Of a DNA stretch of 64,000 nt, positions 7,101 to 25,160 are shown in pieces. Positions within the stretch are counted from its first letter, which is position 1; each line of letters starts with the position of its first letter. Both the position numbers and the translations under genes were made by a program. Origin of the DNA: an uncultured virus (IMG/VR IMGVR_UViG_3300046387_001330) (Duplodnaviria > Heunggongvirae > Uroviricota > Caudoviricetes); IMG/VR virus record IMGVR_UViG_3300046387_001330. One strand, 5' to 3'. The notes beneath the pieces are model-generated. The model saw nothing but the letters and a program-made list of their open reading frames with translations, ran no database searches and was not told where the DNA came from.

Positions 7101-10100
7101 TTGATATAAATGATATGTTCCTCGGTGCAACAATTAAAACAATAAAATTCAAGGAAACAGATTCAATTTTAACTGCCATCCGAGCTTTTTACTATATAAA
7201 AGACTATTATTCTGAGGTTAAATCAATAAATGCAGAAACAATTATAAATGGAACATTTAATGGTCTACGAAATGCCAAAGGAATGTTTGAAGGATCATAC
7301 TTGTATAAATTATCTGCTCCCAATTTTACTGCGAGAAGTTTGTTATGTACCCACTCAATGTTTGCACAGTGCAGATCAACTGAAATTAATTTTCCTGAAA
7401 TGGAATCAAAACTTGAGAATGCAGATAATATGTTTCGATCCAATTCACATCCTGGTGACATATGTAAAGCAATAATATTTCCTAAAATTAGTATAATCGG
7501 ATACCCGATTAGAGCAATAAATACCGTATATGGTTTATTTTCAGGCAGAACCAACTTAGAAAAAATAAAATTAAAAAATAACTTTTTAGAACCAAGAACT
7601 GAATTGTCATTTTTCGATGTGTTCAATCTGTTTGCTGATTGTAAGAAATTTAACGATTCGTCAATTAAAAATTGGGATGTATCTAGAGTTAGAAGTTTTT
7701 CTTATTGGTTTCAAAATGCAGAAAGTTTTAATCAAAAATTGAATAGATGGGATGTATCAAATGGAGTAAACTTTAATTATATGTTTTACGGTGCTAAATC
7801 TTTTGTAGGATACGGACTTGACCAATGGAAATTATTTGGTGGAGATGATTTTTCAATACGCAAAAGAGTTGATTTTAATCATCGGATGATTAATTTTAGT
7901 TATATGTTTGCAAATGCAACATCATTTAATGCAAATATTAATAATTGGGGCAACCGAATTTTCAACGGACTTCAAAATCATGTTGGCATATCCAGTTACC
8001 ATTCCACCGGACATCAACTTATCAGTACAGTTCAAATAAATCAATTAAATATGGTTAATATGTTTGAGAATGCAAAATCATTTAATAGAACATTGGCATC
8101 TTGGTCACTTCCTATTAAATTTGTACAACGAGATATTGGAGGAACTGTAAGTGGTATACATAAAATGTTTAAAGGTTGTTCTAATTTAAATCAAGACTTT
8201 TCTTCGTGGGAAATGTCACAATATGGAAATATTTCAAAAGAATATATCGATGAAATCTTTGAGGATTCTGGTGTACCGGAACATAAAAAGATTAAACCAA
8301 AAAGTGAAATTGAATTTTATTCAGAATTAGATATTACAATTTCCGGGGTAAGTAAGATAAATTTTGGAGTAAGGTGTGCGGAAGATTCATTCACAATAGA
8401 TTGGGATGACGGTGAAGGTGAGCAAACTATATCTACCGTACCTGATACTGGAAATTTATCTGATTCAAGTATAAAGTTTGTAGCAGTTGACTATGAATCG
8501 GTTATCTCAGAACCAAAAGTGGTAAAAATAAAAGGTCCTATTACCTGTGTAGAAGGTATAATAAATAAAAACTCCATAGTAAATAAAAATTACGCATGGT
8601 TATCTGATACAACTTATGAAAATTACGATGATAATGAAGATTTTAAAAATGTTGTCACAAAAATTGTAAATCGTGGTGATGCTTTAACTTTAACTGGATT
8701 CTTTTATTCAAATAACAATTATACACATATACAAGATAGTATAGCAGAAATTGATTATACAACTGCCGATTTTACAAATTTTTCATTTAATTATTATGGA
8801 AATCAAGAACATCGATTTGCAAATAAAACTACGTTTAAAAAACCTATTACAGCGTCTGGTTTAAATAATTCACCATTTTATAGTATTAATGCTGGTGGTG
8901 ATAATCGTGGTGAAGTTTTGGTAAAAGTTCCAGATAATTTTGATTTAGATGAATTACTAAAAAATGAAATTAAGTCAGGTAGTTTGTTCGCGAATTCATG
9001 TATTGCAAATATCGATGAATTAATTGGTACATCCACTTTTAAAAATGTATCAATTAAGGATCATATGTTTGGTGGTACGAGGAAATTACCAAGTGCGGAA
9101 CTATTTAAGCAATTAGATTTCAGTTGTACAATATCAGCAGAATATTGTTTTAGTTCTATAGATTCCGATGGGGTCTCAAGTGGTGGAAACGAAACGATTG
9201 ATCTGAGTGAATATGATGTATCAAATGTAGTCACATTTGACAATATGTTTAATGGTGTAGCAAATAACAACATCACTGGATTGGAAAACTGGAATGTTTC
9301 AAACGGAATAGATTTTATGCGTATGTTTGCCTATTCCCGTGATTTTAACAAAAATATATCTTCATGGAATATGGCAAATGCGACGAACATTGCTGGTATG
9401 TTTGAAAGAGCTGAATCTTTCAATCAAAATTTAAGTAATTGGAATTTGTCGAGATGTGTTATGGCAAATGGTGTATTTGATGGTACGCAGATTTCAAATT
9501 TTAAACTTGGTGAAAATAAAATCCAAACCATTGACCTTGAAACACAATCAGTTGAAAACGAATCAGATTTTTCATCCGCAACTTATATTGAGTGTAATCA
9601 AAATAATTTAGATTTAAATACTTGTAATATATCTTCTTCCGTGGCTCATATAAAATTAGATACTGGAGGTGAATATCCATTTGATTTATCTACTTTGCAA
9701 GTTGGGAATCTAGGTTCATTTACACTAGGTAGTAATACAACAATTTCTGAAGAGAAAAAACCGAAACTTGTGCAATTGAATACTCGTGGAATTATAAGTT
9801 TATCTTCAAAAGCACCAGTTGCAACTATTTTACTTGAATTCGTGGATAATAAAAAGGAATTTGAATTTGAGGTTACTCACGATGCGAATTTAAAAATATA
9901 TTGGAATCCAAACGAAGAACCAGAAATTATTGATTCAGCAAATACAAATATTGTATACAGTAAATCACAAGAGTCAAATTTTTCAAATGTTGTAATACAA
10001 GGTAATATAACTCATATATCATTTAGACCCAAAGATAATACTTTAAATGGAATAAAGTATGCATTGGTACATGATGTTACTAATAATATTAAATCATTTG

Positions 10101-12001
10101 ATAGAATGTTTTATCATTGCGAACAATTAGTAACTGCTGATATGTCAGGATGTGCGACATATTCTGCTCTTTCGTCGGGACTGACTAACAAACACTCATT
10201 ACAATTTCATTCGGACACTCAAAGAACCGCAGAAGAGATGTTTGTAGAATGTGGTAGTCTAAGAAATGTTTATTTTTATGAACCTCAGAACTTGATACCT
10301 CCCGGTAACGGTCATCCCTTAAATAATACTGGATTAAATCACACATTCGGTTGGTTAATGGAAGCATCACATATATTCTGGAATTGTTCCGTTTTAGAGA
10401 AGGTATCATTCAAAGGATGTAGACTTGAAACTTGTAAATCTTTATACAATACATTTAGTGGGTGTGTTAGTTTGACTGAAATTAAGTTTCCAGATAAAAC
10501 TACAATTAATATTAATCCGGAAAATAAGTTTGCACCGAATGCATACGTAGAATTTAGAAAAATTCCAAACTCAGTTCATCTTGCCGATACGTTTAAGAAT
10601 TGTAAAAAATTAAGTTCAGTTGATCTTTCATTTTTAAGAGTATTTTTTGCAAAATCAATGTCCGGTGTGTTTCAAGATTGTGAGGCATTAACCGAAATAG
10701 ATATAAGTAATGTTGTATTCCTTAACACAGAACATTCTTGGTCAAGATATCTGTATTCTGTGTTTTCAGGGTGTATTAATTTAGAAAAAATAATTGGTTT
10801 AAATTATTTAAATACATCCCACTTTCAATGGTTAAGTTTTTTATTCTCAAACTGTCAGAAACTTACTGATTTATCAGATATAAACGGATGGAATACCAAA
10901 TCTGTGGTGAGGATGGATGGAACTTTTAGAAATACATCGTCTCTTCAAAAAATAAATTTAAGAAATTGGTGCGTTGAAAAAATCACAGAACCCGATCAAT
11001 TCTTTGCCACCGGTTCTGGAATAGAAACAAGCATTTCAAGACATCCAAGGTGGGGATCATGTCCAACTGAAAATTTAGATTTAGATTCTACTGTATATCT
11101 TCAAATTTTACCACCCACCCCAACACCAACTGTGTCGGCATCATATTCACACTCTGTATCACCTTCTGAACCTTTCCCATCACCAACTCCTTCAGTATCA
11201 GCATCTTATTCTCAATCTGCATCTGCATCGATTGTAATCCAAGAAACATCATGGCCTGATGCCGATGCTGAAGGTATAAGTGAAGAAGATTTTATTGTAC
11301 CTGCTTCAACTTCGGGTAGTGGTAGAATGGAGGCGACACTTGGATGGATAGTTGCTGATGATAATATTGGATGGTTAAATGAAGTATTTCCAGATGGAAA
11401 TGTGCATGAAAATTTCAGAAAAGTTACAAATGAAGCAACATATAGTACTAAATCAGATTATGATGCGTTTGTACTTTTTGGACCCGGAACTGCAAATGCT
11501 CTTGGGACTGAATATCATTATTTAGCAGAAGATGCAGGTGGTGGTATTATAAAAGGATGGTATCGTGGTGGAATAAATTTGCCAAGTGTTTCCCATCTAG
11601 ATGTAGGTCAAAATTACAAAAACGATGGAAAAGATGAATCATTATACTCAGATATACAAAATATGGGTGGGTATTTTTTATCTGGGGGAATAGTGCGTGA
11701 TCATTTTATTGGTGGTAAATCTTTGCTTGGTGATGACGCAACCGCAACTTTTATTGCTGATTGGTCTTCAGAGGACGGTATTGTACCTTTTAAATGGACA
11801 GAATTTAATGCTGGAAATTTTTCCCATTCACGATTTTGTACATCACAAGGACCTATATTTACACAATCTCGTTTTACAATATATCGTGGAAAGCATTCAG
11901 CAGAAGAATTTGCAGGTGGTCCAATAGACCTTCGTGAGATTAATTTTAAAAGTAATACAAATTTATACTTAACAAAAGCATTTGCAGATCCATGTAATTG
12001 A
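1154..12001 (+). CDS. Giant (~3615 aa) modular adhesin/tail-fibre-like protein: dockerin-like N-terminus, FG-GAP-like propeller with an inserted LamG domain, five DUF285/BspA-type repeat cassettes, Pro/Thr/Ser linker, unknown C-terminal domain
   Basis: Start moved from TTG 1097 to ATG 1154 (AGGAGG at 1136-1141, just after the previous stop). Motifs: FGKESVAIYGDYLAVSA, WGRSL..LFVGAP, LTIEFWYR..WNHIAIVH..LYVNG..YIDDIRI, FNQDISGWNTTHITSMKNLF, PPTPTPTVSAS. Confidence 0.8.
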   Translation: MDYKIGDFTGVQESKPDGNITKEDVQLFLNGMKTGLFLDKHQPEFHISNTFQKSPYMGPSFREILKLDCKVEEGGGTFGDDESEELDDLVGPSNTDDVEIEISEIVDDTLVHFGEKGSAIDTYLETIVASVPNAKIKNFFHKSGDATTPVEKNIGYVKIYSFADKLDYSEYDIVLPPVFTNRDEESVPHDLEFGKESVAIYGDYLAVSAFYSRPKADELVEQNPSAKIFIYKKYEGDETNDPGYKFYTVIEDFEFGVEPVLEIHEDLLFASDYRFNFIKVYSLEKLSTLTNYETAIPLSKIVPVDLIKPISGEDFNSEWGRSLVCRDGLNLFVGAPNAIVSYGAPISTGVVQHYALNQSDSLTDPDGTQPNPWKFIQTISLPQSTIPYWASDEKQWYDFHNAYKDGDSDYKDESPKTAGCGWGINDDLGTYFEEEELPPFTCAYYLVADTRMGETIDFRNQKDSQNQIDKGRTYLTIGCPNYFDETDPNAEPTAKDGCTVIFDVSLTYTDITSIQGGQHQLINRIMPNTAPAVKAMEVGSSPGVHFDCDDVSVHIQSELPSQEDLINRGSPLFWDDHNNSLTYSEVTHGDNDGLLLHSAPYAKSYIKVGQGGGTDNATLGDISLQEQPSYLLNDDDLTIEFWYRSQNSNGDTEQFIVGTNDGSESPDSSANAWKLTFNTTSNKFTFLYKNSSYEFNKQSNDEFDNTAWNHIAIVHENNPKSSSEGITENTRTLNLYVNGVQQLSDNTIEYAQRIINSDAGTYLSFVGLKNSSNTFVAGQSCYIDDIRITHGIRYTEAFDRPVSCFAICYFPKGFGASVSMDANYDVYALDNHTGGFISKYERLVSENSSVSWSFREKVSLSKDEPVVGGMTSIYSLDLVYGNKNDLRIYPRTSTIGIHEGENENLAKDIDLSYTISDITAPYDYSVMLKGKGIIDWGDGTQESFDFRDGFKKLAHRYENSADNYVIKIYGVTGWGESEGADSGQSKVTQVNKISENVTELDGAFKGATNFNQDISGWNTTHITSMKNLFSGATSFNQDLSNWNVENVTDMSGMFNGASVFNSDLSEWCVSSLNEQSNFSTDSSLTSEKIPSWGTCNNYIDFYFDTSSLTAPLVIPFTTSFTESDSTGYDLTVTWGEDDPEVFTVENIEQSLNNFANNTTTETISALYPTKTDNIPSNSNYKVRLAIPDAPCKLENIEDVVGETGPEFPSTLFTSPNRIKVKRGDSLIHFNCGNYKSLQEIDLSNAILSNIEYLNFSQCTNLSSIVWPSELDCTNIDSFRTLFYGCDALTDISLENFKNTENVYDATAMFENCTNLTSVDLADFTGENLLYSTSMFRGTKLSNINGQKFNTRKITNADSMFAEMPNFRVFIFGDDWNFDNLESANYMFGFQNRPSSLPTRFIGSMVNAMGPLPKIKSLNGFFKNQIDIQYLGWKDNEPPTFENVTDMTEMYYGVNAVERDILSHTFSKANTINLTKINGMLGCDDVPGAHWYAINGGDNDTKVITDVLEIVGNALNTDKVTHAVGFLQNQKWLGTFDVPMNLTSVLDMSHFFENTQVTNPKFSHDWNASELTTTNYMFKGIQGLRHIFNWNTSKLISANGMFEGTTFSYDPNEFSGIDTFDVKNLKYADYMFKDSNFDENLYMWCANAIESRIGFNENSDLVDDKLPIWDSSECPDDIIFLEHTILANTNDEDNTLRLPVSIGDGGIQIDWGLGNGWETYNKTSDSELLVKNIKSNSGIIKIKGDLKQISFSTTDVYKLLPLENYDFLEDGYGIAKYGDYDADNINYVDYTWYEDYISSTNTKYNLVSNIFGYRYKNSSLNSDLKRIVIRGMSSITSANNMFAKLASTHIDINNWDASNVKSSSKMFLNSQRIVNYSLFQIPAIKEVIKNTIDAKMMFAHANTDVWGSGLNEEIPSQIELNFENAKTIIHLFARLKIIGVTNSSNEDLPNLKLIIPECRTAYQSLATGYTRFDHIEIENSYKLFDINDMFLGATIKTIKFKETDSILTAIRAFYYIKDYYSEVKSINAETIINGTFNGLRNAKGMFEGSYLYKLSAPNFTARSLLCTHSMFAQCRSTEINFPEMESKLENADNMFRSNSHPGDICKAIIFPKISIIGYPIRAINTVYGLFSGRTNLEKIKLKNNFLEPRTELSFFDVFNLFADCKKFNDSSIKNWDVSRVRSFSYWFQNAESFNQKLNRWDVSNGVNFNYMFYGAKSFVGYGLDQWKLFGGDDFSIRKRVDFNHRMINFSYMFANATSFNANINNWGNRIFNGLQNHVGISSYHSTGHQLISTVQINQLNMVNMFENAKSFNRTLASWSLPIKFVQRDIGGTVSGIHKMFKGCSNLNQDFSSWEMSQYGNISKEYIDEIFEDSGVPEHKKIKPKSEIEFYSELDITISGVSKINFGVRCAEDSFTIDWDDGEGEQTISTVPDTGNLSDSSIKFVAVDYESVISEPKVVKIKGPITCVEGIINKNSIVNKNYAWLSDTTYENYDDNEDFKNVVTKIVNRGDALTLTGFFYSNNNYTHIQDSIAEIDYTTADFTNFSFNYYGNQEHRFANKTTFKKPITASGLNNSPFYSINAGGDNRGEVLVKVPDNFDLDELLKNEIKSGSLFANSCIANIDELIGTSTFKNVSIKDHMFGGTRKLPSAELFKQLDFSCTISAEYCFSSIDSDGVSSGGNETIDLSEYDVSNVVTFDNMFNGVANNNITGLENWNVSNGIDFMRMFAYSRDFNKNISSWNMANATNIAGMFERAESFNQNLSNWNLSRCVMANGVFDGTQISNFKLGENKIQTIDLETQSVENESDFSSATYIECNQNNLDLNTCNISSSVAHIKLDTGGEYPFDLSTLQVGNLGSFTLGSNTTISEEKKPKLVQLNTRGIISLSSKAPVATILLEFVDNKKEFEFEVTHDANLKIYWNPNEEPEIIDSANTNIVYSKSQESNFSNVVIQGNITHISFRPKDNTLNGIKYALVHDVTNNIKSFDRMFYHCEQLVTADMSGCATYSALSSGLTNKHSLQFHSDTQRTAEEMFVECGSLRNVYFYEPQNLIPPGNGHPLNNTGLNHTFGWLMEASHIFWNCSVLEKVSFKGCRLETCKSLYNTFSGCVSLTEIKFPDKTTININPENKFAPNAYVEFRKIPNSVHLADTFKNCKKLSSVDLSFLRVFFAKSMSGVFQDCEALTEIDISNVVFLNTEHSWSRYLYSVFSGCINLEKIIGLNYLNTSHFQWLSFLFSNCQKLTDLSDINGWNTKSVVRMDGTFRNTSSLQKINLRNWCVEKITEPDQFFATGSGIETSISRHPRWGSCPTENLDLDSTVYLQILPPTPTPTVSASYSHSVSPSEPFPSPTPSVSASYSQSASASIVIQETSWPDADAEGISEEDFIVPASTSGSGRMEATLGWIVADDNIGWLNEVFPDGNVHENFRKVTNEATYSTKSDYDAFVLFGPGTANALGTEYHYLAEDAGGGIIKGWYRGGINLPSVSHLDVGQNYKNDGKDESLYSDIQNMGGYFLSGGIVRDHFIGGKSLLGDDATATFIADWSSEDGIVPFKWTEFNAGNFSHSRFCTSQGPIFTQSRFTIYRGKHSAEEFAGGPIDLREINFKSNTNLYLTKAFADPCN
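3890..11065 (+). repeat. Five tandem cassettes of DUF285/BspA-type ~25-aa repeats, each with an Ig/PKD-like N-cap
   Basis: N-caps IDWGDG (~3953), VTWGED (~4547), IDWGLG (~6275), IDWDDG (~8396), IYWNPN (~9896); repeats of type MF.xA.xFNqdls.WdvS; C-caps PSWGTC, PIWDSSEC, PRWGSC. Confidence 0.8.
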
Positions 12002-12003
12002 TA

Positions 12004-15000
12004 ATGAAAGAAATAAAATTAAATTCTAATAATAAAACAGAATCAAGATTTTTTTCATTTGGTTCAGTCAATGCATCTGCGTGTTCTGATTTTGCCAATT
12101 CAATTTCAACTTATGGAGATGGAAAAACACGAAAAGCAGTAAATGGATTAAGTGTTCAGTTTTTTGAAGTAGGTGGACGTCTTTGTTTTCACGACTTGGA
12201 TTTGGATGGAATTGCTAGAAGTTATGGTATTAATTTTACTTTAAATGGTATAACTGTTTATGGAAAAGTAACAACGACTGGTAAAATAGTAGACAATGAA
12301 ATAATATATGTTTCACCAACGAACGATATATTCCACGGAAAATTAGAATCCGAAAACGCATTTGAAAACCAATTAACATTGTTTACTTCACATACTGAAG
12401 AAACTGAGAATGAAGAAGAATTAAACGAGTTTCCAGATGTAGAAGAATCTTCCGAGACACCAACTCCAACTCCCACTAAAACTCCAATTAAAGTTGAAGA
12501 AGAGGAACCTGAGTATTCAGACGATGAATATCTTACTCAGATAACAATTGATAATATTGATTTCGATGAATCTGGTATTTACAATCAACGTACAAAATTG
12601 GTGGGAATTGAAAAAGAAAAAATGGAGTATGCGGTAAATCCAGAAAAGAACGATTACATTAAAAAAAATCCATACACAGGAGAATACAATTTTGTTTACT
12701 CAAACGAAGTAGATATTGCAAACTTTCCCAACTTTTATATTCCAGGTGGTAGTGGTGGTTTTTCATATCAGTTCATAATTGCTTTTAAAAAACCAATTAG
12801 CATTAAAAAAGATTCTTTATTAAATATTCATTTTGTGCCAATTGGTGTAGGTTTTGGAACTGCTGGTGGTGCAAGAAACACAGAAACAAATAAACCTACT
12901 TTATATGCAAGTGATAAACAAAATTTATCAGAGCATCGTGCGATCAGTCATTCCTGGCCGGGTTGTGTATGTTGTCCATTTTACTCGTATGGTGCTGATC
13001 ATAGTGTTGGTATTGTAAAAGCATCTAATGATTTTGAAAATATAAAGTATTTAATGTTCGGTGGAATGTTAGGTGGGTGTAACGGTAAACCAAATTATCG
13101 CATGGTTTTACAATCATTTTCAATTTCATCATTAGTCACATACACCCCAACTCCCACATTTACAACCGATCCTAATTGTGTTACAACTGAAAATTGTAAT
13201 GATGTGGGGTTGTTAATAAAAAGTAAAGATAAGCAACCATATAATTTAATAACAGATGATTCACCATTTGATATGGAAATAAATCAAATGGAAGGTCTTA
13301 GATATACAAAAACATCAGACGGATTTAAAGATAGTAATGTATCAATTAAATTTGATGGAAATTGTGAGTATCTTTATTCAGACGATACAGATAATTTTGA
13401 CGGAATACATTTAAAAAATAATGATTTTACAATAGAAGCATGGATAAAACTAATTGCACCTCCCACTCCCACACCCACCAAGTCTATTTCTTATTCAAAA
13501 AGTCCTTCATTTTCAAAAACTCCTAGTAAAACTAAAACTCCAACTCCTACACCAACTCCTACACCGACACCATCAAAGTCTAAAACAAAAAGTCCCACAC
13601 CTACATCATATGCTTGTTTGGTTTTCACCGCAACTGGTGGCACACAGACATACACAGTACCTCCTGCGGTTGGTAAGATATTTGTTCAAATGTGGGGTGC
13701 AGGTGGATCATCTGGTAGATATCAAGCAAATAAAGATGCAGGAGGTGCGGGAGGTTATGCAGAGGGATATATTTCAGTCACGGCCGGAGAAAAATTATTA
13801 ATTGGTGTAGGTGAAACAACGAGTGGTACTGATATAAATACTTGGCATATACCTGGTTATAGTATCGGTGGAACTGCCGGACATGGTGGTGTAGGACAAC
13901 ACAGAGGAGCAGGTGCTGGTGGTGGTATGAGTGGAGTATTTTTAAATTCAATATCTACCGATAATGCTTTGATAATCACAGGAGGAGGAGGTGGTGCGGC
14001 CGGAAGTGGAACAGCACCAAATGCCGGTGGTGGTGGAGGTGGAGGAGAAATGGGCATTTCTGGAAGTCGTTTCGAGAATGATTTAGGAGGTGGTACGGGT
14101 GGCACTCAAACTGCATCTGGAACTGGATGTGGAACAGGTTCTCAATTTAACGGAGGAAGTGGAGATACACTTGGCCAATCAAGTGGTGGGGGTGGTGGAG
14201 CCGGTTGGTTTGGTGGTGGAGGTGGATGTGCATTGGGTGGACAAGACTCAAGTGGAGGAGGTGGTTCTGGTTATTTATCGGACAGAGTATCTGAAGGAAA
14301 AATGGTCGCAGGTGATTCGGGTAAGCAGGGTAAATTAAATACCAAAGCATATAAACCATCTGAATATGTATGTGATATAAATGAAGAGTTGTTATTGAAA
14401 GCCGGAAATCCAGATAATCACGGCCTTATAATTTTTAGTATTCCTCAAACAGGTTGTTATGAAACAAAGTTACCTACTATAAATCAAGATGGATATTCTG
14501 GAAATGGTACTATAAATCGTCCTAATAATGGAAATTTGGCTACTGATGCTGATTTTAACACGGTTACTGGTTTATATAGTTGTACTTGGAACGAGTCTTG
14601 GCAGAGAGTAGAATATAAATTTTCAGATGCAACTGAAACAGGAATTTTGCGTGTAAAACTTGATTTGGCGTGTACTTTGCCATATAAATCTGTATTTGGG
14701 GGTAAATTTGATTATTATGTAAGATATCGTGAAACTCAAACAAGTGATTGGATTTATTTGCTAAATAAACAACTTAGTACCATAAATGAAACTAATTCAA
14801 CAAATTATTATCATCTTGATCAATCAGTTGAGTTGAGTAGTGTTGATAAAGTTCAAATCTATATAAAAGATCGTGGTCAGGGTTCACCTAGATTTAGAGT
14901 ATACGGAGTAAATTATAAGTGTAATTTGTGTATTACACCAACACCAACTCCTACACCGGACTTATACAATCGGAGAACAACCTGTGGTCAACCGTGTGAT

Positions 15001-17796
15001 TCAATGATCAAGTCTAATAAAGATCTTTCAAATGTAGCAGAGATATGGACAAATTATGATCCACTTATTGCGGGTTCTGTTTATAATCATAATGTATCTA
15101 GTCAAATTGTCGGTTGGCCATTTGCTGTGTATGAAACCAGTTCTCAACAAAGTATCCCTTCATTTATTTCTGATTCAGAAACTCATGCTCTGTGGACAGA
15201 AACAAGAAGTGGAAGTGGGTATAATGCTGGATTTTTCATGTTAGAACACGAACCCGAAACAATAACTCCTCATTCGTGTGCAAAAATATCTTTTAAGTAT
15301 CATTTTTTTAGCAAAACCGGTGGTGGTGGTGATGGAATGGCATATGGTTTGGTCGCAAAACAAGAAGATAATTATTTTTGTAATTGGTTTGGTATCACTC
15401 TTCTTAGTTCGACACCAATATCAAGAGAAAAAGAATTGGTAGATGGAAGTTGGTTACGAATAGGTGGAGACGGAACAACAAGTCAACCTGAGTGGAATAA
15501 ACCAACAACTTTTGGTGTATTTTTTGCAAATTCAAGTAGTGGTATCGTAAAAGCATGGAGCACAGATTTTCAAATTTGCCTTCTTCATAAAGAAGTTGCA
15601 ACACCAACACCAAGTAAATCTGCAACAAAAACTTTAACACCTACACCAGTTTTTTCTTGGTACGGAAATGGTAATGGTAGTTATGGTGCAGTTGGTCTAA
15701 TAAAAAGCAAAATGATAAAAGAAGGAATTACGATTTCTCATTTACTTGACGGAGACATCGTTCAATATGTTGGACATTACGAAGGAACACTTGTATTAAC
15801 AAACAAACAAAGTGTTTATTATTTTGGTCGTGTATTCTATTCCACATACAATCTTCAGTCATTTTACAACCCACCCAAGAAAATTGAATTTCCACCTGGC
15901 ATAGCAATCAAGAAAATATTCGGATGTGGTGGTGAATCATATACTTGGAGATTTTATTATATTGATAACAATAATAATTTATACGAAAATTTAGTAACAA
16001 CTGATATTACCGAAGCAAATATTATAGATACCAATGTTGTTCAAGTATCTTTTAATAATAAAGGTGGTTCGGGTGCAGCTTCATTTACGACAGATGCAAC
16101 CACGGTGTATTTGAAAGAAGACGGAACTGTGTGGGGGTATGGTAAAGGATCATGGGGAGAACTTGCAAGAGGAAGTTTAAGTAATGTACCAAAAGAGAAT
16201 CCAGTGCAAATTGCTGGTCCTGGAAAATCATACATAACAGAAAATGAAACAGATTTACTCGGTGATGTCAAAATTAAAAAAGTAGAAATTTGTGGTTACC
16301 ATACTGTTTTTCTAGATGAAAATAATGATTTGTATCAAACTGGATATCAACCGCAGATAGGATGGCCTCCTGCAAGTAAACCTAAAAAGATACTAAGTGA
16401 TGTAAAAGATGTAAACGGGTCAAGTGGTTCTTTGGGTGTAATTACCAATGATGGTTCGGTTTATACACGTGGAAATACTAGGTTTCCATCGGTGTCATAT
16501 ATAGGTCGTAGTGGAAGTTTGGGTGTATTGGCAATAGCATATGATGCAACGATTGATGGTAATTCAAAAGCAAAAGAAATTTATTGCGATTCATTTGGAG
16601 GAAATTTTCTAACAGAAGATAATAAGTTGTATGGATATGGATCATATGGAAATGTAGTTGGAACTAACGGAAAATATTCAGGATTTGCTCCAGAGATAAT
16701 AGATGAAAATGTAAAATCATTTACGGTTGGAATTTACCATATGATTTACAGAAAAGACGAAAATTCACAAATATCTTCACCATCTAAAACACCCACTCCA
16801 ACTAAGACAAAGACACCCACACTAACTCCGACAAAAACAAATACTCCATCAGTAACACCAACTGCAACTCCAAGTGCATCTGCTTCTCAACAAAAATCGT
16901 TTGATAACTTATCAAATGCAGGATGTTCAGACGATTTAATCATAATAAAAGAATACGGTGAAAATAAAGATATGCTTGGAATTTCAGGAATATATAAAAA
17001 TTCCGATTTTCAAGATTTTTCATCTATGGGTGGTGCATATAATCGTTTTAGTGATTTCCACGGAAACTTTAGAAGACAAATTTGGGGATGTGGTATGCTT
17101 GCCGATCAAACTGCAAGTAAAGTTTGGACACCGTCAGTATGTGCATGGGGATATTCAGATTATGCATACGACAACTTTTCAACGAATGCAAATGAATTTC
17201 AGTTTTTTGACGAAAATGATCAAGCAACATCATGTATAGGTGAAGCAAAATCTGTTAATTTTTATCTTAAACCTGAAATAAAAATTCCCATTTCTGTGCA
17301 AAAAATGGAAATTGTAGATTCGTTGTGTGTAAGTGTAAAAGATTTTCCAGAATTCAATGGATTGTATGTAGCAAATAATACAGGTTCACGATACGACTTA
17401 ATTGGAAATGATGGTGAATCTCTTGCATCCTTTTCAACCGATGGTACAAAATGGCAATGGCAAACGAGAACTAATATTTTTGACTACCTATGGAATCACA
17501 CAGAAATTGACAACATTAATCCAAATGTAAATCAAGATACACCATCAATAACTGATGCGTTTGTATCAGTCACGGGTGCTTCAAATACAGATGATGGTGT
17601 ATTTAGTGCAATGTTTGTTTGGGATGCATTTTGTTCTGAGGAACTAAATAAGCAAAATACAATGCAAATGTCTAATTTACACGATGATGGCAAAACACCA
17701 TCTGTTTTTGAAATAAAATATCGTCCGGACGATTGCGAATGTGCATTGCAAGAAATTGATTATGAATATTATGTTGTAGTTGATACGCAGGAATAA
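12004..17796 (+). CDS. Large (~1930 aa) modular tail-fibre/appendage-like protein: shared N-terminal domain, N-terminal half of LamG, glycine-rich domain, RCC1-like repeats, several Pro/Thr linkers
   Basis: ATG 12004 lies 2 nt after the previous stop. SIKFDGNCEYL..DFTIEAWIK; FTATGGTQTYTVP..VQMWGAGG..GGGGGAGWFGGGGG; LKEDGTVWGYGKGSWGELARG, CGYHTVFLDENNDLY; TPTPTPT tracts. Confidence 0.8.
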   Translation: MKEIKLNSNNKTESRFFSFGSVNASACSDFANSISTYGDGKTRKAVNGLSVQFFEVGGRLCFHDLDLDGIARSYGINFTLNGITVYGKVTTTGKIVDNEIIYVSPTNDIFHGKLESENAFENQLTLFTSHTEETENEEELNEFPDVEESSETPTPTPTKTPIKVEEEEPEYSDDEYLTQITIDNIDFDESGIYNQRTKLVGIEKEKMEYAVNPEKNDYIKKNPYTGEYNFVYSNEVDIANFPNFYIPGGSGGFSYQFIIAFKKPISIKKDSLLNIHFVPIGVGFGTAGGARNTETNKPTLYASDKQNLSEHRAISHSWPGCVCCPFYSYGADHSVGIVKASNDFENIKYLMFGGMLGGCNGKPNYRMVLQSFSISSLVTYTPTPTFTTDPNCVTTENCNDVGLLIKSKDKQPYNLITDDSPFDMEINQMEGLRYTKTSDGFKDSNVSIKFDGNCEYLYSDDTDNFDGIHLKNNDFTIEAWIKLIAPPTPTPTKSISYSKSPSFSKTPSKTKTPTPTPTPTPTPSKSKTKSPTPTSYACLVFTATGGTQTYTVPPAVGKIFVQMWGAGGSSGRYQANKDAGGAGGYAEGYISVTAGEKLLIGVGETTSGTDINTWHIPGYSIGGTAGHGGVGQHRGAGAGGGMSGVFLNSISTDNALIITGGGGGAAGSGTAPNAGGGGGGGEMGISGSRFENDLGGGTGGTQTASGTGCGTGSQFNGGSGDTLGQSSGGGGGAGWFGGGGGCALGGQDSSGGGGSGYLSDRVSEGKMVAGDSGKQGKLNTKAYKPSEYVCDINEELLLKAGNPDNHGLIIFSIPQTGCYETKLPTINQDGYSGNGTINRPNNGNLATDADFNTVTGLYSCTWNESWQRVEYKFSDATETGILRVKLDLACTLPYKSVFGGKFDYYVRYRETQTSDWIYLLNKQLSTINETNSTNYYHLDQSVELSSVDKVQIYIKDRGQGSPRFRVYGVNYKCNLCITPTPTPTPDLYNRRTTCGQPCDSMIKSNKDLSNVAEIWTNYDPLIAGSVYNHNVSSQIVGWPFAVYETSSQQSIPSFISDSETHALWTETRSGSGYNAGFFMLEHEPETITPHSCAKISFKYHFFSKTGGGGDGMAYGLVAKQEDNYFCNWFGITLLSSTPISREKELVDGSWLRIGGDGTTSQPEWNKPTTFGVFFANSSSGIVKAWSTDFQICLLHKEVATPTPSKSATKTLTPTPVFSWYGNGNGSYGAVGLIKSKMIKEGITISHLLDGDIVQYVGHYEGTLVLTNKQSVYYFGRVFYSTYNLQSFYNPPKKIEFPPGIAIKKIFGCGGESYTWRFYYIDNNNNLYENLVTTDITEANIIDTNVVQVSFNNKGGSGAASFTTDATTVYLKEDGTVWGYGKGSWGELARGSLSNVPKENPVQIAGPGKSYITENETDLLGDVKIKKVEICGYHTVFLDENNDLYQTGYQPQIGWPPASKPKKILSDVKDVNGSSGSLGVITNDGSVYTRGNTRFPSVSYIGRSGSLGVLAIAYDATIDGNSKAKEIYCDSFGGNFLTEDNKLYGYGSYGNVVGTNGKYSGFAPEIIDENVKSFTVGIYHMIYRKDENSQISSPSKTPTPTKTKTPTLTPTKTNTPSVTPTATPSASASQQKSFDNLSNAGCSDDLIIIKEYGENKDMLGISGIYKNSDFQDFSSMGGAYNRFSDFHGNFRRQIWGCGMLADQTASKVWTPSVCAWGYSDYAYDNFSTNANEFQFFDENDQATSCIGEAKSVNFYLKPEIKIPISVQKMEIVDSLCVSVKDFPEFNGLYVANNTGSRYDLIGNDGESLASFSTDGTKWQWQTRTNIFDYLWNHTEIDNINPNVNQDTPSITDAFVSVTGASNTDDGVFSAMFVWDAFCSEELNKQNTMQMSNLHDDGKTPSVFEIKYRPDDCECALQEIDYEYYVVVDTQE
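13456..13610 (+). repeat. Pro/Thr/Ser/Lys low-complexity linker (further copies at ~11110-11230, 12455-12487, 14935-14958, 15600-15648, 16775-16888, 20918-20995)
   Basis: PPTPTPTKSISYSKSPSFSKTPSKTKTPTPTPTPTPTPSKSKTKSPTPT in the translation. Confidence 0.9.
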
Positions 17797-17799
17797 TTT

Positions 17800-20058
17800 A
17801 TGGAAAAAGATTTTTTAAATTCTGAAAATTGGAAAAAGTGCGGTGATAATAAACCAAAAGCATTTCGTTTAAAAGTGCATAAATCTGACTGCGTTGTTCG
17901 TAGATCAATAAGAAAATTTCAGTCCGCAGAAGAACTTGGTTTTTATGGTTTAGCAGAACTTGAAAATTCATCAGATAAAAATTACAACTATGGACACAAA
18001 TGGTCCATAAAAGAAAAACCTGATGCATTTACATATTTTAGACCAGATGTAAATCCGATTGATTCATCGATGTATGAGAATCATTGCGAAATTGGTGATA
18101 ATGTAGATATTAGCAAAAAATTAGTTTTAAATGTTGATAATACATCAAGTGATAGATTTAAAATAATCTCAGATTTTCCTGATCCAGATGCAACAAAATT
18201 ACCTAGTTCTAATTTCGATTATGCATATAAATTAAAGTATAACGAAACAACACAACAATATAATGTAACTCATAATTATCGTATTGATTTTCACGGTACA
18301 TTTACTCAATATCGTGCAGTTGATATTCAACTTAATTCTAAATTTATGATAGTAAAATTAGAAGATGCCACATCACTTGAAAATTATATGGTGTATGTTC
18401 GTGGTTTAGACAAAGATAGTTTTGTTTATGCAAAGTCTTTAAAAGATGTTATAGAAGATTATGAAGAAATTGTAAACTTTATGCCAGCAGAAGATACACT
18501 AAATAACAATGAAGTATATGAACCTTTTGAATATGATTTACAAGTAAATTCATACGGAACTAAAATTTTGTTAAAAGTTTATCGTGCGAAGATTACAAAC
18601 GGCCAAGCAAATTCAAGAGTCGAGTTTTCACGTCATTATTTGATGGATTGGAATGATTGCAAAAATAAATTTGAAGTTTTAGATTTTCTTGATACAAGCA
18701 AAGCAAACAGAATACAAAAAGATGTTCCAAACTACGATTCTACAAATTATGTAGAAATGGTTGATTCGTATAACGCAAATGCTAAACGCAAGCATTCAGA
18801 ATCTCATATAATAAATTTTGAATATATTTTAACTCCTACTGATGATATTTTAATATATTCAAAATATTCAACGAGTTATAGTACATTTATAGAAACATTT
18901 AATTTAAGTTGTGATGGAACTTGGGGTATTGGTCACAAACTGAGTGATAACAATTTTCATAAATATTCATTTAATGAAGAAACAAATAAATTAGAAAAAA
19001 TATCAGAAAGAACCGATTTATTGCCATTTCCGGATATGAATGAAACAGGAAATATGGCAGGAACAACAACAAGTGCCTGGAATGCATGGCCACAAACATA
19101 CTGGAATTCAGATTATTCATATTTTGGTCATAGTAATCCATTTTACTATTTCGGTGAAGTAAAATCTGGAATACAATTTGCTAATATAATACACTTTGAT
19201 AAAGATCACCTAATTTTAGATTTAGAAATTATAAAACCTTGGAAACGAATCCACCACGCATATTCAAAAAAAGCAGGCGAATCGTGCTCCACACCACCGT
19301 CTACTTCAACACACGACGGAGAACTTATAGATAGGTATATAATAAAATATAAAGTTAATGAGTTGGGAAAATACGAAATTGTATCAAAAAGTAATGTAAA
19401 TGATTATCATACTCAAACCAGTAATATTCATTTAAAATTTTCAGAGATTGTGCAAGGTAGATACATGAATGAAAATAAATTATTAGTGAAAAATCACAGA
19501 CGAACTTCGTCAAATTGGTGGGAGTATAGAAATTCGGACACTCTAAATAAGAGGTTGAACAGTCATTCAATAATTGAATCGTGGTATGATCAGCAGATAT
19601 ATAACATATCTTATGGTATGGATGTTGATCCACTGCCATCTGGTACAGAAAATATCTATTCTTGGCGAGTGGTGGATACATCATCCGATACTATGGAATT
19701 TCAAGACTTAACCGGGTTGACTGAAAATTTGATTGAACTTGTTGGTGAAAATGAACATCTCATGAATTACACTTGCAATGGAAATGATATATTATTTTTG
19801 ATTGCAAAATTTGAAATAAATGATGGCAATGTATTAGTTACCAATACACGTCTTGAGATTTATACTACAACTGATTATGTATCATTTACTAAAAAGCAAA
19901 CTATAAATTATTCTGATTTATATCCAACTGATAGAAATAACAGTCAAGATTTGTTAGGAAATAAAATTCCACTCGATTACGGAAATATATTAAACGTAAT
20001 AGATAACATGATGATTAAAAATTACATGAATGTCAATCAAGATATAATCTTAACATAA
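17800..20058 (+). CDS. Hypothetical 752-aa protein, probably beta-rich and structural
   Basis: Long ORF with GCAGGA upstream, in the same frame as the preceding gene; no recognisable catalytic motif. Confidence 0.7.
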   Translation: MEKDFLNSENWKKCGDNKPKAFRLKVHKSDCVVRRSIRKFQSAEELGFYGLAELENSSDKNYNYGHKWSIKEKPDAFTYFRPDVNPIDSSMYENHCEIGDNVDISKKLVLNVDNTSSDRFKIISDFPDPDATKLPSSNFDYAYKLKYNETTQQYNVTHNYRIDFHGTFTQYRAVDIQLNSKFMIVKLEDATSLENYMVYVRGLDKDSFVYAKSLKDVIEDYEEIVNFMPAEDTLNNNEVYEPFEYDLQVNSYGTKILLKVYRAKITNGQANSRVEFSRHYLMDWNDCKNKFEVLDFLDTSKANRIQKDVPNYDSTNYVEMVDSYNANAKRKHSESHIINFEYILTPTDDILIYSKYSTSYSTFIETFNLSCDGTWGIGHKLSDNNFHKYSFNEETNKLEKISERTDLLPFPDMNETGNMAGTTTSAWNAWPQTYWNSDYSYFGHSNPFYYFGEVKSGIQFANIIHFDKDHLILDLEIIKPWKRIHHAYSKKAGESCSTPPSTSTHDGELIDRYIIKYKVNELGKYEIVSKSNVNDYHTQTSNIHLKFSEIVQGRYMNENKLLVKNHRRTSSNWWEYRNSDTLNKRLNSHSIIESWYDQQIYNISYGMDVDPLPSGTENIYSWRVVDTSSDTMEFQDLTGLTENLIELVGENEHLMNYTCNGNDILFLIAKFEINDGNVLVTNTRLEIYTTTDYVSFTKKQTINYSDLYPTDRNNSQDLLGNKIPLDYGNILNVIDNMMIKNYMNVNQDIILT

Positions 20059-20068
20059 TTAATCTTAT

Positions 20069-20089
20069 ATACTCAGTTTTGAGTATTTT
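20069..20089 (+). terminator. Candidate weak hairpin/terminator
   Basis: ATACTCA-GTTT-TGAGTAT forms a 7-bp stem followed by TTT, in the intergenic gap; the stem is AT-rich, so weak. Confidence 0.35.
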
Positions 20090-20101
20090 AATATATATTG
20101 A

Positions 20102-20110
20102 ATATTTATA
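20102..20110 (+). promoter_or_regulatory. ATATTTATA motif, candidate viral late promoter
   Basis: 4 nt before ATG 20115; recurs upstream of several other genes. Confidence 0.55.
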
Positions 20111-20114
20111 GATA

Positions 20115-23100
20115 ATGAGTGAAACTGATACAAATAATGCTCCCGATATTCAACTTAAATGTTGCGATAATTTTGATAACACAATTCAAACTCATGGAGA
20201 CGGAATAGAAAGAAAAGCAGTTGCAGGTGTAAGTGTTCAGTTTTTTGAGGATGGAGGTACATTCTGTTTTGATAACCTCAAACTAGATGGCTTAAGTAAT
20301 TCGTTTGGTGTTACCATAAATTTAGGAACTCGTACAGTTTACGGAAAAATAAAAGCAACAGGACAATTTGTTAATAACGAAGTATTTTATGTATCACCAA
20401 GTGGAACTATGTTTGGAGGTAAACTTGAGTCAAATAATGCCTTTGATAATATTTTAAAAGATGAAGGAGTGTGTTCTGGATATGTAGAACCAATTGATGA
20501 AGGTGAACCAGATGATATAAAACTCGGAGTATTTCCAATTGCGAGTTTTAAAAATGCATTTAGTATTATTTATGATTCAAATGTTAATGAACTTTCGTTC
20601 GTTGAAGAATTTACTCTTCAAACTATATACAAAACAAAAGCAATTATACCAAGAGAAAGATGGACTCATATTGCTATTGTAAGAAAAGAAGGAAAATTAC
20701 TTTTTTACTTAAACGGAAAACAAAAAGGTGAAGAACTTCCAAACGATATTAATTACTCTAAACCAACAGAGGTAACTATTGGTAGGCATTACGACAAAGA
20801 AAATGAAAAATATTCTTATTTTTTGGGAGAAATTGATTCACTTAAAGTAATAAATAACTTCGTAAAATATCATTGTAACTTTAGAGCATCAGAAATTGAT
20901 GAGTGTGTTCTTGAAGAAACTCCCACACCCACACCTACACCAACTGCAACACCAACACCAACTGCAACGCCGACTAAAACAGAAACTCCTCGTCCTGAAA
21001 AAGAACTCAGAGTTTACAATAATATAAAAGACATATCAAGTTTAGTAAAAATAAATGGGGTTGAGAAATATGTAGATGAATTTTCAATTTTTGAACTTAT
21101 TCCTGGAACTGAAATAAGTTTTCATGATCTTCCGAACGAAGGGTACAAGTTCTTAAGATTACATGGGCAAATAAATTGGTTAGATGATCATTCTGGTAAA
21201 ATGCCAGACGAAGATGTAGATGTTTATTTTGAATATGCACCAATTGAAATAGATGAATTTAGAAGAAGTTGTGACGAAAAGTGTCCATGTGATGATGACA
21301 CAACATTACTTGTATTACCAAAGCATGATCCAAGAATAGATTTAGATTTCTTTGAACACACAACAGAGTTTGATGAATTTAGAAGGGTGGTTGAATTTGA
21401 GGATAATCTTCCTGAAACACCTGGTATTAAATGCGAGTATGAAGTGTATCTTTTTGAAAATGATTTGTTTATCAAGAATAAAGAAACTAAATCAAACTTT
21501 GCATGGAGAGATTTAGTTTTACTTCGTGGAAATCACTATAATTTTAAATTTGAAACGACGTCTTCAATTTTTAAAGTGTACGACGAATTTGATAACGAAT
21601 TAGATGAAACTCATGGAGTATATCAAACAGAAAATTGGGTGTATCCTTTAATAATTTTGCCGAATGATAAAACTCCAACTTTCATAAAATATAAACTTTT
21701 CTTTTCTAAAAATATGTATGAAGGAAGAATTCTGGTAAGAACTGCAAATCATGTGTCGGGTGTAAATACGGTGTATTCGCATCAACATGGAGCAAAAGTA
21801 AAGTTTGAAATTTCAGACGATAAAAGTGACGAAACAACATCTTATCGCAATGGAACTTATCATTTTGGATTGAGTGAGTATGTTGATTTGAATGAAACAA
21901 AAATATCAGCAAAAGAAGGACTTGAACTGGAACTAGAATCTTCTATTGAATGTGATTTTACTAATGTACCTGGATATCTTGATACAAATGTTCTTACTAC
22001 ATTATATGATTTCGTTTTAAATAAAACTAAAAATTATATAGAAACTCGTCAACGAATAAATAAGTATTTTAAATTTAAACATGACTTTGATTTTCTTAGT
22101 TTAGACTTTTTAACAAAGTTCATGTGGTCAGACGAAATTTCATATGAGCAATTTTGTAAGATTTTATATTTTACATTTTTGTTTGAGTATGCGTGTACAA
22201 AAGAAAAACGAAATGAATTTCTTGAGGTAGTTTCTAGTCAAATATTAGATTCAAATGTACCTTTTAAATTTAACAATGATTATTATGTAAGTGATATATT
22301 AGACAAGTCGGAAATTGACCCACGGGTTGCTTCGGTATTTTGTTTGTGTTTTGTTAAAACTTTAAATAAAAAATACAGAACTCATCAACAAAAAGTTGAT
22401 GATTTGTATGCACATATAAAACTTTTAAGAAATAATCTGATTGAAAGTGAATCGTTTTCTGTATTTGTATTTAACTCAGAATATAAACAAAATATAATTG
22501 ATACAAAAGATTCAATCAAAGAACCAATAAAATTACCTGAAAAGGTGCTGATGAAATCAGAAGATTGTACAGGAACACAACTTGGGTATCATGTTGTTAG
22601 AAAGTACGACGATATATTGACAAAATCTGTAATTGATAATAACGATGTAACACTTGAAAATCTTCGTAAGTTTAATAATCTTACTCTACGATTATCAGCA
22701 AACAACAAGTCATATTGTTACACGATTTCAAGTTATTCATATAATTTGTTTGGAATACACGATGAAGTTGACGTATATAGAATATTCGGTGACTTTACTG
22801 ATCCAAACGAATGTTGTGATATTGTAAAAAGAAATGAAGGGTTCTTTGAAAATCAACAAGAGATTTTACAAGAATCAAATATTATGTCTTTTAAACTTGT
22901 AGAAGCAGGAAGTTCTCGTTCCATGTTAGCAAAAAATGTAAGCAACATGAATTATCCTGTTGAAAAAATAGGCAATAATCAATTCAGAACTTATATTGAT
23001 GAAACGGTATCATCTGGTAATGTAATGTATTCAAGTCCTGGATATTTTATAGTACCCCGTGAAACTGCTAATAATTTAATGTATAGAAGTGTTGATGTTG

Positions 23101-23771
23101 GATACAATTCCAATGAACCCGTTCGTGAGGTAAGAAGTTTTAAACCAGATGAAATGCAAGTAAATATTTTAACTACATGGATGACAGATGATGGAACATT
23201 AAATGTTGTAACTGACATTGATCCAAGTTTACATATTGGTGATTTTATTACAATTAAAAATGGAACAACTAATTCTGCAATCAATGGAACATTCCGAGTA
23301 AAATCTGTAAGTGAAAACAATTTTGCATTAGAGTTTAGAGTTCCTATGAATATGGAAATAAAAGATATGCAAAATATGACCGGTAATTTTAATACCTCAT
23401 TTGCTACAAGAATTTATACAAATGTAACTGGACTTAAACCGGGTGATGACTTAGTTTTTGATTATGCAAGTGGTCATGGAAAACGATACGAAGTTATAGA
23501 ATTATCACAAGATGAATTTGGAGTTTTTGTAATTGTTAAGGGTATATTAGATAGAAAACCAAGTTCAGTCGTGAAAAGTCATTTTAATGTTAACTCAGAA
23601 GACTTTATTAGGTTTACATATGAAACTAAGGTATCATACTACAATGTAAGTAAAACCAATCCACAGACGCACTCTTTGTGGATGACGCACTTACCTGACG
23701 TAACATCAGATGGTCGTTTCAATGATAAGGTTTCTTTTATACAAACATACAATGAATCATTGAATAGTTGA
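20115..23771 (+). CDS. 1218-aa modular structural protein: shared N-terminal domain, C-terminal half of LamG, Pro/Thr linker, InlB-B/Flg_new-like repeat, phage tail/baseplate-like beta domains
   Basis: N-terminal ~100 aa are paralogous to the 12004 gene; WTHIAIVRKEGKLLFYLNG..TIGR..FLGEIDSLKV; PNEGYKF..MPDEDVDVYFEY; LVLLRGNHYNFKF; HIGDFITIKNG..INGTFRV. Confidence 0.75.
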   Translation: MSETDTNNAPDIQLKCCDNFDNTIQTHGDGIERKAVAGVSVQFFEDGGTFCFDNLKLDGLSNSFGVTINLGTRTVYGKIKATGQFVNNEVFYVSPSGTMFGGKLESNNAFDNILKDEGVCSGYVEPIDEGEPDDIKLGVFPIASFKNAFSIIYDSNVNELSFVEEFTLQTIYKTKAIIPRERWTHIAIVRKEGKLLFYLNGKQKGEELPNDINYSKPTEVTIGRHYDKENEKYSYFLGEIDSLKVINNFVKYHCNFRASEIDECVLEETPTPTPTPTATPTPTATPTKTETPRPEKELRVYNNIKDISSLVKINGVEKYVDEFSIFELIPGTEISFHDLPNEGYKFLRLHGQINWLDDHSGKMPDEDVDVYFEYAPIEIDEFRRSCDEKCPCDDDTTLLVLPKHDPRIDLDFFEHTTEFDEFRRVVEFEDNLPETPGIKCEYEVYLFENDLFIKNKETKSNFAWRDLVLLRGNHYNFKFETTSSIFKVYDEFDNELDETHGVYQTENWVYPLIILPNDKTPTFIKYKLFFSKNMYEGRILVRTANHVSGVNTVYSHQHGAKVKFEISDDKSDETTSYRNGTYHFGLSEYVDLNETKISAKEGLELELESSIECDFTNVPGYLDTNVLTTLYDFVLNKTKNYIETRQRINKYFKFKHDFDFLSLDFLTKFMWSDEISYEQFCKILYFTFLFEYACTKEKRNEFLEVVSSQILDSNVPFKFNNDYYVSDILDKSEIDPRVASVFCLCFVKTLNKKYRTHQQKVDDLYAHIKLLRNNLIESESFSVFVFNSEYKQNIIDTKDSIKEPIKLPEKVLMKSEDCTGTQLGYHVVRKYDDILTKSVIDNNDVTLENLRKFNNLTLRLSANNKSYCYTISSYSYNLFGIHDEVDVYRIFGDFTDPNECCDIVKRNEGFFENQQEILQESNIMSFKLVEAGSSRSMLAKNVSNMNYPVEKIGNNQFRTYIDETVSSGNVMYSSPGYFIVPRETANNLMYRSVDVGYNSNEPVREVRSFKPDEMQVNILTTWMTDDGTLNVVTDIDPSLHIGDFITIKNGTTNSAINGTFRVKSVSENNFALEFRVPMNMEIKDMQNMTGNFNTSFATRIYTNVTGLKPGDDLVFDYASGHGKRYEVIELSQDEFGVFVIVKGILDRKPSSVVKSHFNVNSEDFIRFTYETKVSYYNVSKTNPQTHSLWMTHLPDVTSDGRFNDKVSFIQTYNESLNS

Positions 23772-23778
23772 GGTATAA

Positions 23779-25160
23779 ATGAGTCTGTTGACACAAGATT
23801 ATTTGCAACTTAAACAGGTCAAAATATTTTTAGATAAAAATATTTCTATATCGGAAAGTGAAATAAACAAACAAAGTGTTGGTCAACTTTTACTTAATAA
23901 TTCTTTTTTTAAAGACTTTGACGGAGATGGTATTATTTCATATAATGATTACAAAATTGCTTGGAATTGGTTAATGCAAGGCAAACCAACTGAATTAAAA
24001 GATTTACAAGATAATCAAAGTGATAGCATAAAGGTTACAGAAATGCCTTATGAAAAACTTCAACAAGGTGAAGTTAATATTTTACCTGATCACTCTAAAT
24101 CTAAGCAGATAAAGTTGGTCAATGAAACTAAAAATAAACCCAAATTTAAATTTTCTTCATATAGTTCAGCAAAACAAAAAGTAAAAAGTGAACCACAACC
24201 AAATTTGGTTGTGATGGGTGAATTGCCAAAAATAAATAAAAGTAATACAACAAGAACTATTAATGCTTTTGAAGTCAATAAGGAAGAAGTTAAAGAAGAA
24301 ATTACTGAAGCAAATTTAGAAGTAAATTCATTTGATTATTCAGAACTTATGAAAGTCAAAAATTATTTGAATTCCAACCATGAAATTTATCCAGAAGATG
24401 TTGCAAAAGATAAAGTTGGCCAACAACTATTAAACAACAAGTATTTTGAAGACTTTGATAATGATGGAAAAATTACCATAAATGATTTCAATATTGGTTG
24501 GAATTGGGTAATGCAGGGTAAACCAACGAGTATTGATGAGTTTATTAAAAATAGTCCAACCGATGCAGAGGATTTTGACATACCGTACCAAAAAATACAA
24601 AACACAGAGCAAAGTATTTTACCAAGTCAAAACATAAATGAGTTTAAAAATAAAGTAAATTTAATAATAGGAGCAAGTGTAGAAAAAAGTAAACGAATTG
24701 TTTTTAAAGAAAATGTACCTGTTGAAACGCAACAACCACAACTAAATTCTTCTGACGAAAAATTTACTTACAATTATTTTAAGGCAGACGATTCTCGTCA
24801 GATAAATTCGTTTGAGGTTACTCCTATAAAAACAATAAAAAAGAATTTAGAGTTATTATCAGAAGACTATAAGCAACTTGAGGAAGTAAAAGCATTTGTT
24901 CTTAAGCATAAAAACATATCAATTGATGATCTTAGTAAAATGGAGTTGAATCAGTCGTTGTTAAATAATAAATTTTTTAATGATTTTAATATGGACGGAA
25001 TTATATCTTTTGATGATTACAATATTGCATGGAATTGGGTTATGCAAGGTAAACCAACTGATTTAATAACATTTGCAAAAAATAAAAGTGCGACTCCAGA
25101 TACACATAAAATTCCATATCAAAGTGTTCAAAATACGGAATTTAGTATATTGCAGGATAA
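23779..25160 (+). repeat. Three ~100-aa intragenic repeats (approx. 23779-24090, 24330-24630, 24850-25160)
   Basis: tggaattgggt.atgca.ggtaaaccaac-type DNA similarity and a shared LLNN.FF.DF..DG.I...D....WNW.MQGKPT pattern. Confidence 0.9.

Follow-up and report, generated by a model that had tools for sequence, protein, structure and literature searches.

Introduction

In chaperone-usher pili a strand of one chain completes the beta-sandwich of another, which is known as donor-strand complementation. Jellyrolls and divided genes offer two further comparisons. An excerpt of PMC8305077 describes the legume lectins lentil LcA and pea PsA as jellyroll beta-sandwiches of two non-covalently held chains, and an excerpt of PMC9895450 treats split cox2, whose complementary genes are thought to rebuild the undivided protein, as gene fission with heteromeric rescue. 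We have analysed 64,000 nucleotides from an uncultured virus of the Caudoviricetes (IMG/VR record IMGVR_UViG_3300046387_001330; this whole stretch is called the window), in which one LamG domain is divided into an N-half inside the protein of gene A and a C-half inside that of gene C (Table 1). An initial annotation, made from the sequence, had suggested that fold complementation in trans locks the two proteins together, or alternatively that the halves are a relic of duplication or insertion.

The halves resemble the Laminin_G_3 or concanavalin A-like domains (PF13385) of phage virion proteins in their motifs, their profile match and their modelled fold, and the family has weak matches to cyanophage virion structural proteins. 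Compared with chaperone-usher pili, about 90 residues (a 91-residue internal half) would be donated here and not a single terminal strand; each protein has one kind of half, giving a 1:1 joint and no polymer, and neither a chaperone nor an usher was seen. The legume lectins, as the excerpt describes them, come from one precursor that is folded and then cut, whereas here two genes encode halves that are embedded in large multidomain proteins and must meet. In comparison with split cox2, as far as that excerpt goes, the break here divides a single small beta domain, the halves are internal, the genes are non-adjacent, and forms with one chain exist beside forms with two genes. What sets the locus apart from the known systems is its internal halves, its non-adjacent genes and its natural one-chain intermediates. 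A literature search, with coverage mostly outside subscription journals, found nothing on a LamG domain split between viral genes, and the excerpt of the moraphage paper PMC12619734 contains no link to this family.

Two complementary halves

The motifs that the initial annotation listed are all located as claimed. Gene A has CNDVGLL at 13195, SIKFDG at 13342, DFTIEAW at 13423 and IKLIAP at 13444, followed by a Pro/Thr linker, and gene C has FPIAS at 20532, NAFSII at 20553, WTHIAIVR at 20661, LFYLNG at 20700 and GEIDSLKV at 20826. The intact copy in the giant gene G runs from CDDVSV at 2795 through CFAICYF at 3563. The halves were also described as about 7 kb apart and in different frames; both are seen (the distance is 7046 bases), but a difference in frame is meaningless for separate genes.

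Aligning PF13385 to both proteins, as had been proposed, gave half an answer. The model matches C (residues 169-247, profile positions 67-142, E 3.9e-8, 34 bits against a cut-off of 27.6) and the giant protein G (residues 634-807, profile 5-140), but not the protein of gene A, even at E<=1. For annotation this is a warning, since the N-half is wholly missed by Pfam and the C-half is called as a whole domain. A LamG profile of 236 positions, for which 208 intact domains were taken from proteins that do not belong to this family, matches both A (positions 11-98, independent E-value (iE) 5e-11) and C (positions 119-217, iE 4e-15; 113-219 in C homologues). The two ranges do not overlap, which bears out the non-overlapping coverage predicted for the halves. 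A six-frame profile scan of the 64 kb finds exactly three LamG pieces, namely the intact copy, one N-half and one C-half, and neither the profile, the scan nor the structural model places the missing strands elsewhere in A or C. A LamG-like start at residue 392 of C (CDDDTTLLVL) was considered and rejected; it has no profile match and is not conserved.

When the halves are abutted, the Trp of FTIEAW and that of WTH stand 49-58 residues apart. Among 79 intact domains from outside the family, 70 have the two residues 40-82 positions apart (median 60.5), so that the rest of the domain follows closely, whereas here it lies in another gene; the remaining 9 either escaped the profile or were truncated at the end of a contig, and by inspection ordinary domain sequence continues in them. 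Non-overlapping profile coverage and a fitting Trp spacing show the halves to be complementary, with the cut in the loop that follows the FTIEAW strand. Within the window the whole domain is thus shared by A and C and not found in one polypeptide; in the relatives L007 and L008/L009 one polypeptide carries it, with an insert.

Conservation and selection

Gene A encodes, in order, an N-domain, an A2 domain, the LamG N-half, Pro/Thr linkers, a glycine-rich domain (PF12810) and an RCC1-like region, and the modules downstream of the N-half differ among relatives, close ones included. Gene C encodes an N-domain, the LamG C-half, a Pro/Thr linker and a conserved region of about 920 amino acids that matches no known family. 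This architecture is identical in all four full-length C homologues (54-71% overall identity), which have the N-domain and the C-half and lack the N-half. Conversely, the full-length A-type proteins P0051, P0050/P0113 and P0116 have the N-half and lack the family C-half; P0116 additionally carries a separate intact LamG. Whether relatives keep the split had been raised as a check, and they do: the cut lies in the same loop across lineages down to 39-43% identity in the N-half and 60-65% in the C-half. The N-half ends in W[IF][KR]LxPxP in all six compared lineages, as well as in P0146 and the more distant P0041, and the C-half starts with D[DR]xxxG in 6/6. Searches of viral_contigs gave distant intact domains but no close relatives, those of genome_contigs no usable relatives, and annotated phages only weak matches.

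The C-half is under purifying selection. Synonymous changes outnumber non-synonymous ones by 10:2 against L001, 9:2 against L002 and 10:1 between L005 and L006, and its identity to four homologues (59-80%) equals or exceeds that of most other parts of C. Both halves have retained the core residues. In trees that included eight intact domains each, the halves of the family form one group apart from the intact domains, with support of 100/100 for the C-half and 99/99 for the N-half when P0041 is left out.

The window, L001 and L002 have both halves by direct observation, and L007 and L008/L009 have them in one chain. Among ten clusters looked up, three pairs of an A-type and a C-type cluster have longest contigs of identical size and source (P0051+P0118, 37369; P0113+P0124, 28360; P0116+P0133, 16034), which suggests that the members of each pair lie on one contig. 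Over six pairs, including these three, the identity matrices of the N-half and the C-half correlate with a rho of 0.73, and 2 of 720 permutations were as high; shared descent explains this as well as co-evolution does.

Relatives with both halves in one chain

In L008/L009 a single frame of 3008 amino acids has its N-half (904-993) separated by 936 residues from its C-half (1930-2060). The insert holds linkers, a repeat region that is propeller-like by inspection, and second copies of the A2 and N-domains. L007 likewise has one frame with both halves in the right order, around a 175-residue DUF285 module. It is a mosaic at the protein level, the N-half being 80% identical to P0050, the insert 94% to a module of P0116 and the C-half 96% to L003, and the DNA of L003 and L007 is near-identical across the C-half only, the likeness beginning and stopping at its edges. 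These in-chain forms show that the loop tolerates large inserts, that the halves are handled as cassettes and that halves in the same chain keep the right order.

As L007 and L008/L009 show an insertion in this loop, insertion plus fission is the likely origin of the split. In intact domains the residues after the FTIEAW strand are most often Y-P-T-S-T, resembling the Pro/Thr linkers of the family, and recombination between Pro/Thr-coding sequences is a plausible route for the insertion.

Two further observations concern these contigs. The protein of L008 (4544-13567) combines the N-terminus of G with an A-like region and the complete C, which are three separate genes in the window. The one-chain gene of L007 (1496-6391) sits outside the usual cluster, after clpC-like and 5'-3' deoxyribonucleotidase-like genes, of which the clpC-like one pointed to no host.

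Structural models

The fragments co-fold when modelled, as the initial annotation had proposed to examine. With a small alignment for each half the scores were 0.88, 0.90 and 0.88, and the best of three controls reached 0.00; of 157 solved complexes 116 score at or above the mark for a co-fold, and of 215 mismatched pairs 2 do. The models have 242-244 contacts, at least 94% of which agree between runs, and a partner pLDDT (predicted local distance difference test) of at least 89. They predict one interleaved beta-sandwich, in which the A strand FTIEAWIK would lie between the C strands WTHIAIVR and GEIDSLKV. With unrelated partners the pLDDT was 49-53 for the C-half and 63 for the N-half.

The model of the C-half matches pentraxin, CBM40 and LG domains with Z 9-10, and the matches start part-way into the pentraxin and thrombospondin domains: residues 42-171 of 204 in pentraxin 1gyk_A (Z 10.2, root-mean-square deviation 3.3, 118 aligned) and 79-215 in the N-domain of thrombospondin-1, 1za4_A (Z 9.0). 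A sequence search of solved structures gave nothing below E 0.06. Completion in cis by the N-domain of C is not supported; this domain folds separately from the half (predicted template modelling score 0.49), and the structural matches cover residues 134-269 only.

Discussion

We consider it probable that the halves re-form a LamG domain in trans, as a branched joint of a variable cargo protein A with a conserved partner C. An ancestral LamG-like jellyroll would have been interrupted by an insertion in the loop rich in Pro, Thr and Ser that follows the FTIEAW strand, and in most of the family the insert would now hold a stop and a new start, which divides the halves between two genes. Once translated, A with its N-half and C with its C-half would fold at these pieces into a single beta-sandwich, and the outcome would be a tight 1:1 non-covalent joint. 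It would be a four-armed branch point and not an end-to-end link, because both halves are internal. Such a joint would hang the variable A modules (glycine-rich, RCC1-like, BspA and, in some relatives, further LamG) on the conserved C, with C as anchor and A as exchangeable cargo; the constant architecture of C with gene D next to it, and the variable modules of A, fit these roles. We infer both the order of these events and the binding in vivo. Fold complementation in trans is the best-supported of the proposals, by the cut site, the selection on the C-half, the partly inferred co-occurrence, the in-chain relatives and the co-fold, and the binding itself is predicted by the model.

Several results weigh against the joint. 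Halves of a solved fold can be expected to pass in co-folding through their likeness to solved structures, and the pass shows that the modelled pieces fit without implying that they bind. AlphaFold2 with an intact-domain alignment models the C-half alone at a pLDDT of 77-91, and model confidence is therefore no proof that a partner is needed. The selection counts for the N-half are tiny (3:2 and 3:1), and it is kept at 39-63% identity. Fewer consensus residues are kept in the halves than in intact domains, 12-14 of 22 in C-halves against a mean of 18.2 and 14-18 of 23 in N-halves against 18.7. The trees favour neither the one-chain nor the two-gene form as the earlier one. The matching of contigs for the three cluster pairs is indirect, the cluster P0004 has no contig match to any A-type protein, and L003, L005 and L006 have a C-type gene and no N-half within the 1.0, 1.9 and 5.3 kb upstream that were examined. 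An unlinked A-type N-half does exist (P0146, P0032) and might be the partner of P0004.

It is unlikely that each half is an independent module that folds alone, forms homo-oligomers or has another partner, so that neither needs the other. The C-half has been copied as a unit between L003 and L007, C-type genes occur without an adjacent A-type gene, consensus sites carry family-specific changes, and the C-half alone is modelled with the confidence given above. Against this, the two halves end in the same loop, where they do not overlap and leave no wide gap, and the strand that the C-half lacks is central in the model. Both halves occur, once each, wherever enough DNA is known or inferred, and L007 carries them in the right order. 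It is very unlikely that the halves are functionless remnants, left when an insertion or duplication was followed by reciprocal loss, which was the other option of the initial annotation. The insertion part of it stands, as the in-chain relatives show an insertion at the loop, and the lower retention of consensus residues agrees with decay; but the C-half is under purifying selection, which largely refutes the idea for that half, and both halves persist without stops or end erosion over lineages at 39-43% and 60-65% identity. The halves are thus not decaying, and an origin by insertion and complementation in trans do not exclude each other.

There is also an intact paralogue in the same gene run, and P0116 has both an N-half and an intact domain, so that the halves might swap strands with an intact LamG (that of G, or the second LamG of P0116-type proteins) and not with each other. 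We regard this as very improbable indeed; the intact copy of G is too diverged for the half-profiles of the family to detect, no intact LamG is present in the 20 kb of L008/L009 examined, and an intact domain offers no free slot. Another way to a whole domain would be to rejoin the halves in DNA or RNA. The same 8-mer, ATAAAACT (I-K-L), stands in phase at both breaks, likewise in L001 and L002, and excision or splicing between the two words would restore the domain and release a circle of 7073 bases. In the window the + strand has 14 copies of this word, though, and C homologues have DITDG, DLFSG, DIFEG or NLDEG and no IKL. The 13444-20517 joint is absent from 4/4 runs, one of them an RNA library, as seen in contigs, which drop rare variants. 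We judge the in-phase 8-mer to be chance and have rejected programmed rearrangement or splicing, for which the junction word is not conserved and no joined molecules appear in those contigs; rejoining is extremely unlikely. The chance that the split is an assembly artefact is practically nil. The read support over 13.4-20.5 kb had been named as a check. In the independent assemblies L001 and L002 the whole interval is present, with the order A, B, C and 95-99% protein identity in the half-bearing genes, and in all three DNA runs both break points are crossed by contigs, one of which, of 10 kb, covers 12462 to 19882.

The joint of A and C would probably be part of an appendage on the virion of a large tailed phage; the likeliest source of the window is a large marine phage of this type. 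A Pfam scan of 6 + 43 window proteins gave no capsid or terminase match; the context is one of matches to PHROG families of unknown function, relatives' contigs of 150-374 kb and tight prokaryotic gene packing. At least half of the region's words are held by 16 of 24 listed sequencing runs, 15 of which are labelled seawater or marine metagenome. If the joint is real, it is a natural jellyroll of lectin type whose two internal halves are encoded separately, and the surviving intermediates (a whole domain, one with an insert, and two genes) show how a joint between proteins can arise from a loop insertion. It would also explain the swapping of appendage modules in large marine viruses. The pair is small (91 + 133 residues), directly testable and a possible new split tag. 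A more tentative idea, to which we give somewhat less than an even chance, is that the split LamG is a portable connector, made of half cassettes bounded by Pro/Thr, in which gain of an N-half docks any module on C. Recombination would then change the cargo of the appendage with the anchor untouched, and one-chain and two-gene forms would interconvert.

Genomic setting

The G+C content of the window is about 30%, and all long genes are on the + strand. Six large modular genes make up the first 26 kb, and the remainder is mostly glycosyl- and sulfotransferases. The packing is of prokaryotic type, with gaps of <=7 bases in 21 of the 35 examined in the window. As A, B and C are co-directional and the gaps flanking gene B are 3 and 56 bases, A and C are likely to be co-expressed from one run. 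Counts of promoters and terminators in the window are at chance level. Contigs of the RNA run X17 cover parts of the region; this is a contig library and allows no inference on transcription.

Table 1. Positions of the genes and domain pieces in the window (aa, amino acids).
Feature	Position	Strand	Remarks
Giant gene G	1157..12001	+	~3600 aa; start TTG 1097, ATG 1142 or 1157; DUF285/BspA repeats and one intact LamG
Intact LamG of G	2795..3580	+	internal control; positions 71-220 of the 208-domain profile match 3020-3562
Gene A	12004..17796	+	1930 aa; ATG 12004; frame 1
N-domain of A	12067..12375	+	aa 22-124; 53% identity to N-domain of C over 103 aa
LamG N-half	13192..13464	+	aa 397-487 of A; ends FTIEAW-IKLIAPP
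8-mer ATAAAACT at end of N-half	13444..13451	+	in phase with copy at 20517
Linker straight after the cut in A	13462..13620	+	Pro/Thr/Ser/Lys
Gene B	17800..20058	+	752 aa; unrelated to A and C, between them; without LamG piece
Gene C	20115..23771	+	1218 aa; ATG 20115; frame 3
N-domain of C	20148..20456	+	aa 12-114; predicted separate well-folded beta domain
LamG C-half	20511..20909	+	aa 133-265 of C; starts DDIKLGVFPIA
8-mer ATAAAACT at start of C-half	20517..20524	+	not kept in C homologues
Linker after C-half	20919..20990	+	Pro/Thr
Gene D	23779..25911	+	710 aa; dockerin-like repeats; next to C-type gene in L002, L005, L008, L009

The N-domain of 103 amino acids shared by A and C is a beta domain that begins with Cys-Cys, is assigned to no family and is modelled at a pLDDT of 92-95; a search of the ESM Atlas with its sequence gave no usable match. 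L008, P0050/P0113 and P0116 each have two copies of it, and the unrelated long proteins P0039 and P0040 carry it C-terminally. The domain at 12532-13128 (residues 177-375 of A), to which no family is assigned, is duplicated in L008 and has 46% identity in the differently built P0019. Gene B matches no family in Pfam, and its ESM Atlas leads are all under 0.9. It is a locally variable gene, 96% identical to that of L001 but only 79% to that of L002, where the genes on either side match at 90-99%.

Three repeats of 127 bases (23896, 24433 and 24964) and a dockerin-like match are found in gene D, whose C-terminal end is similar to the N-terminal end of G. In the first gene of the window (146-575) there is an internal duplication of 208 bases. 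From 25947 to 64000 there is a dense glycan-modifying run, in which eight proteins match Sulfotransfer_2, together with many glycosyltransferase families, an epimerase and nucleotidyltransferases. It lies directly downstream of the Pro/Thr-rich modular genes, and its products may glycosylate or sulfate virion proteins. A contig of the run X7 has 605 other letters in place of 12441-12462, in a Pro/Thr linker of gene A, which suggests the insertion of a module in a close relative.

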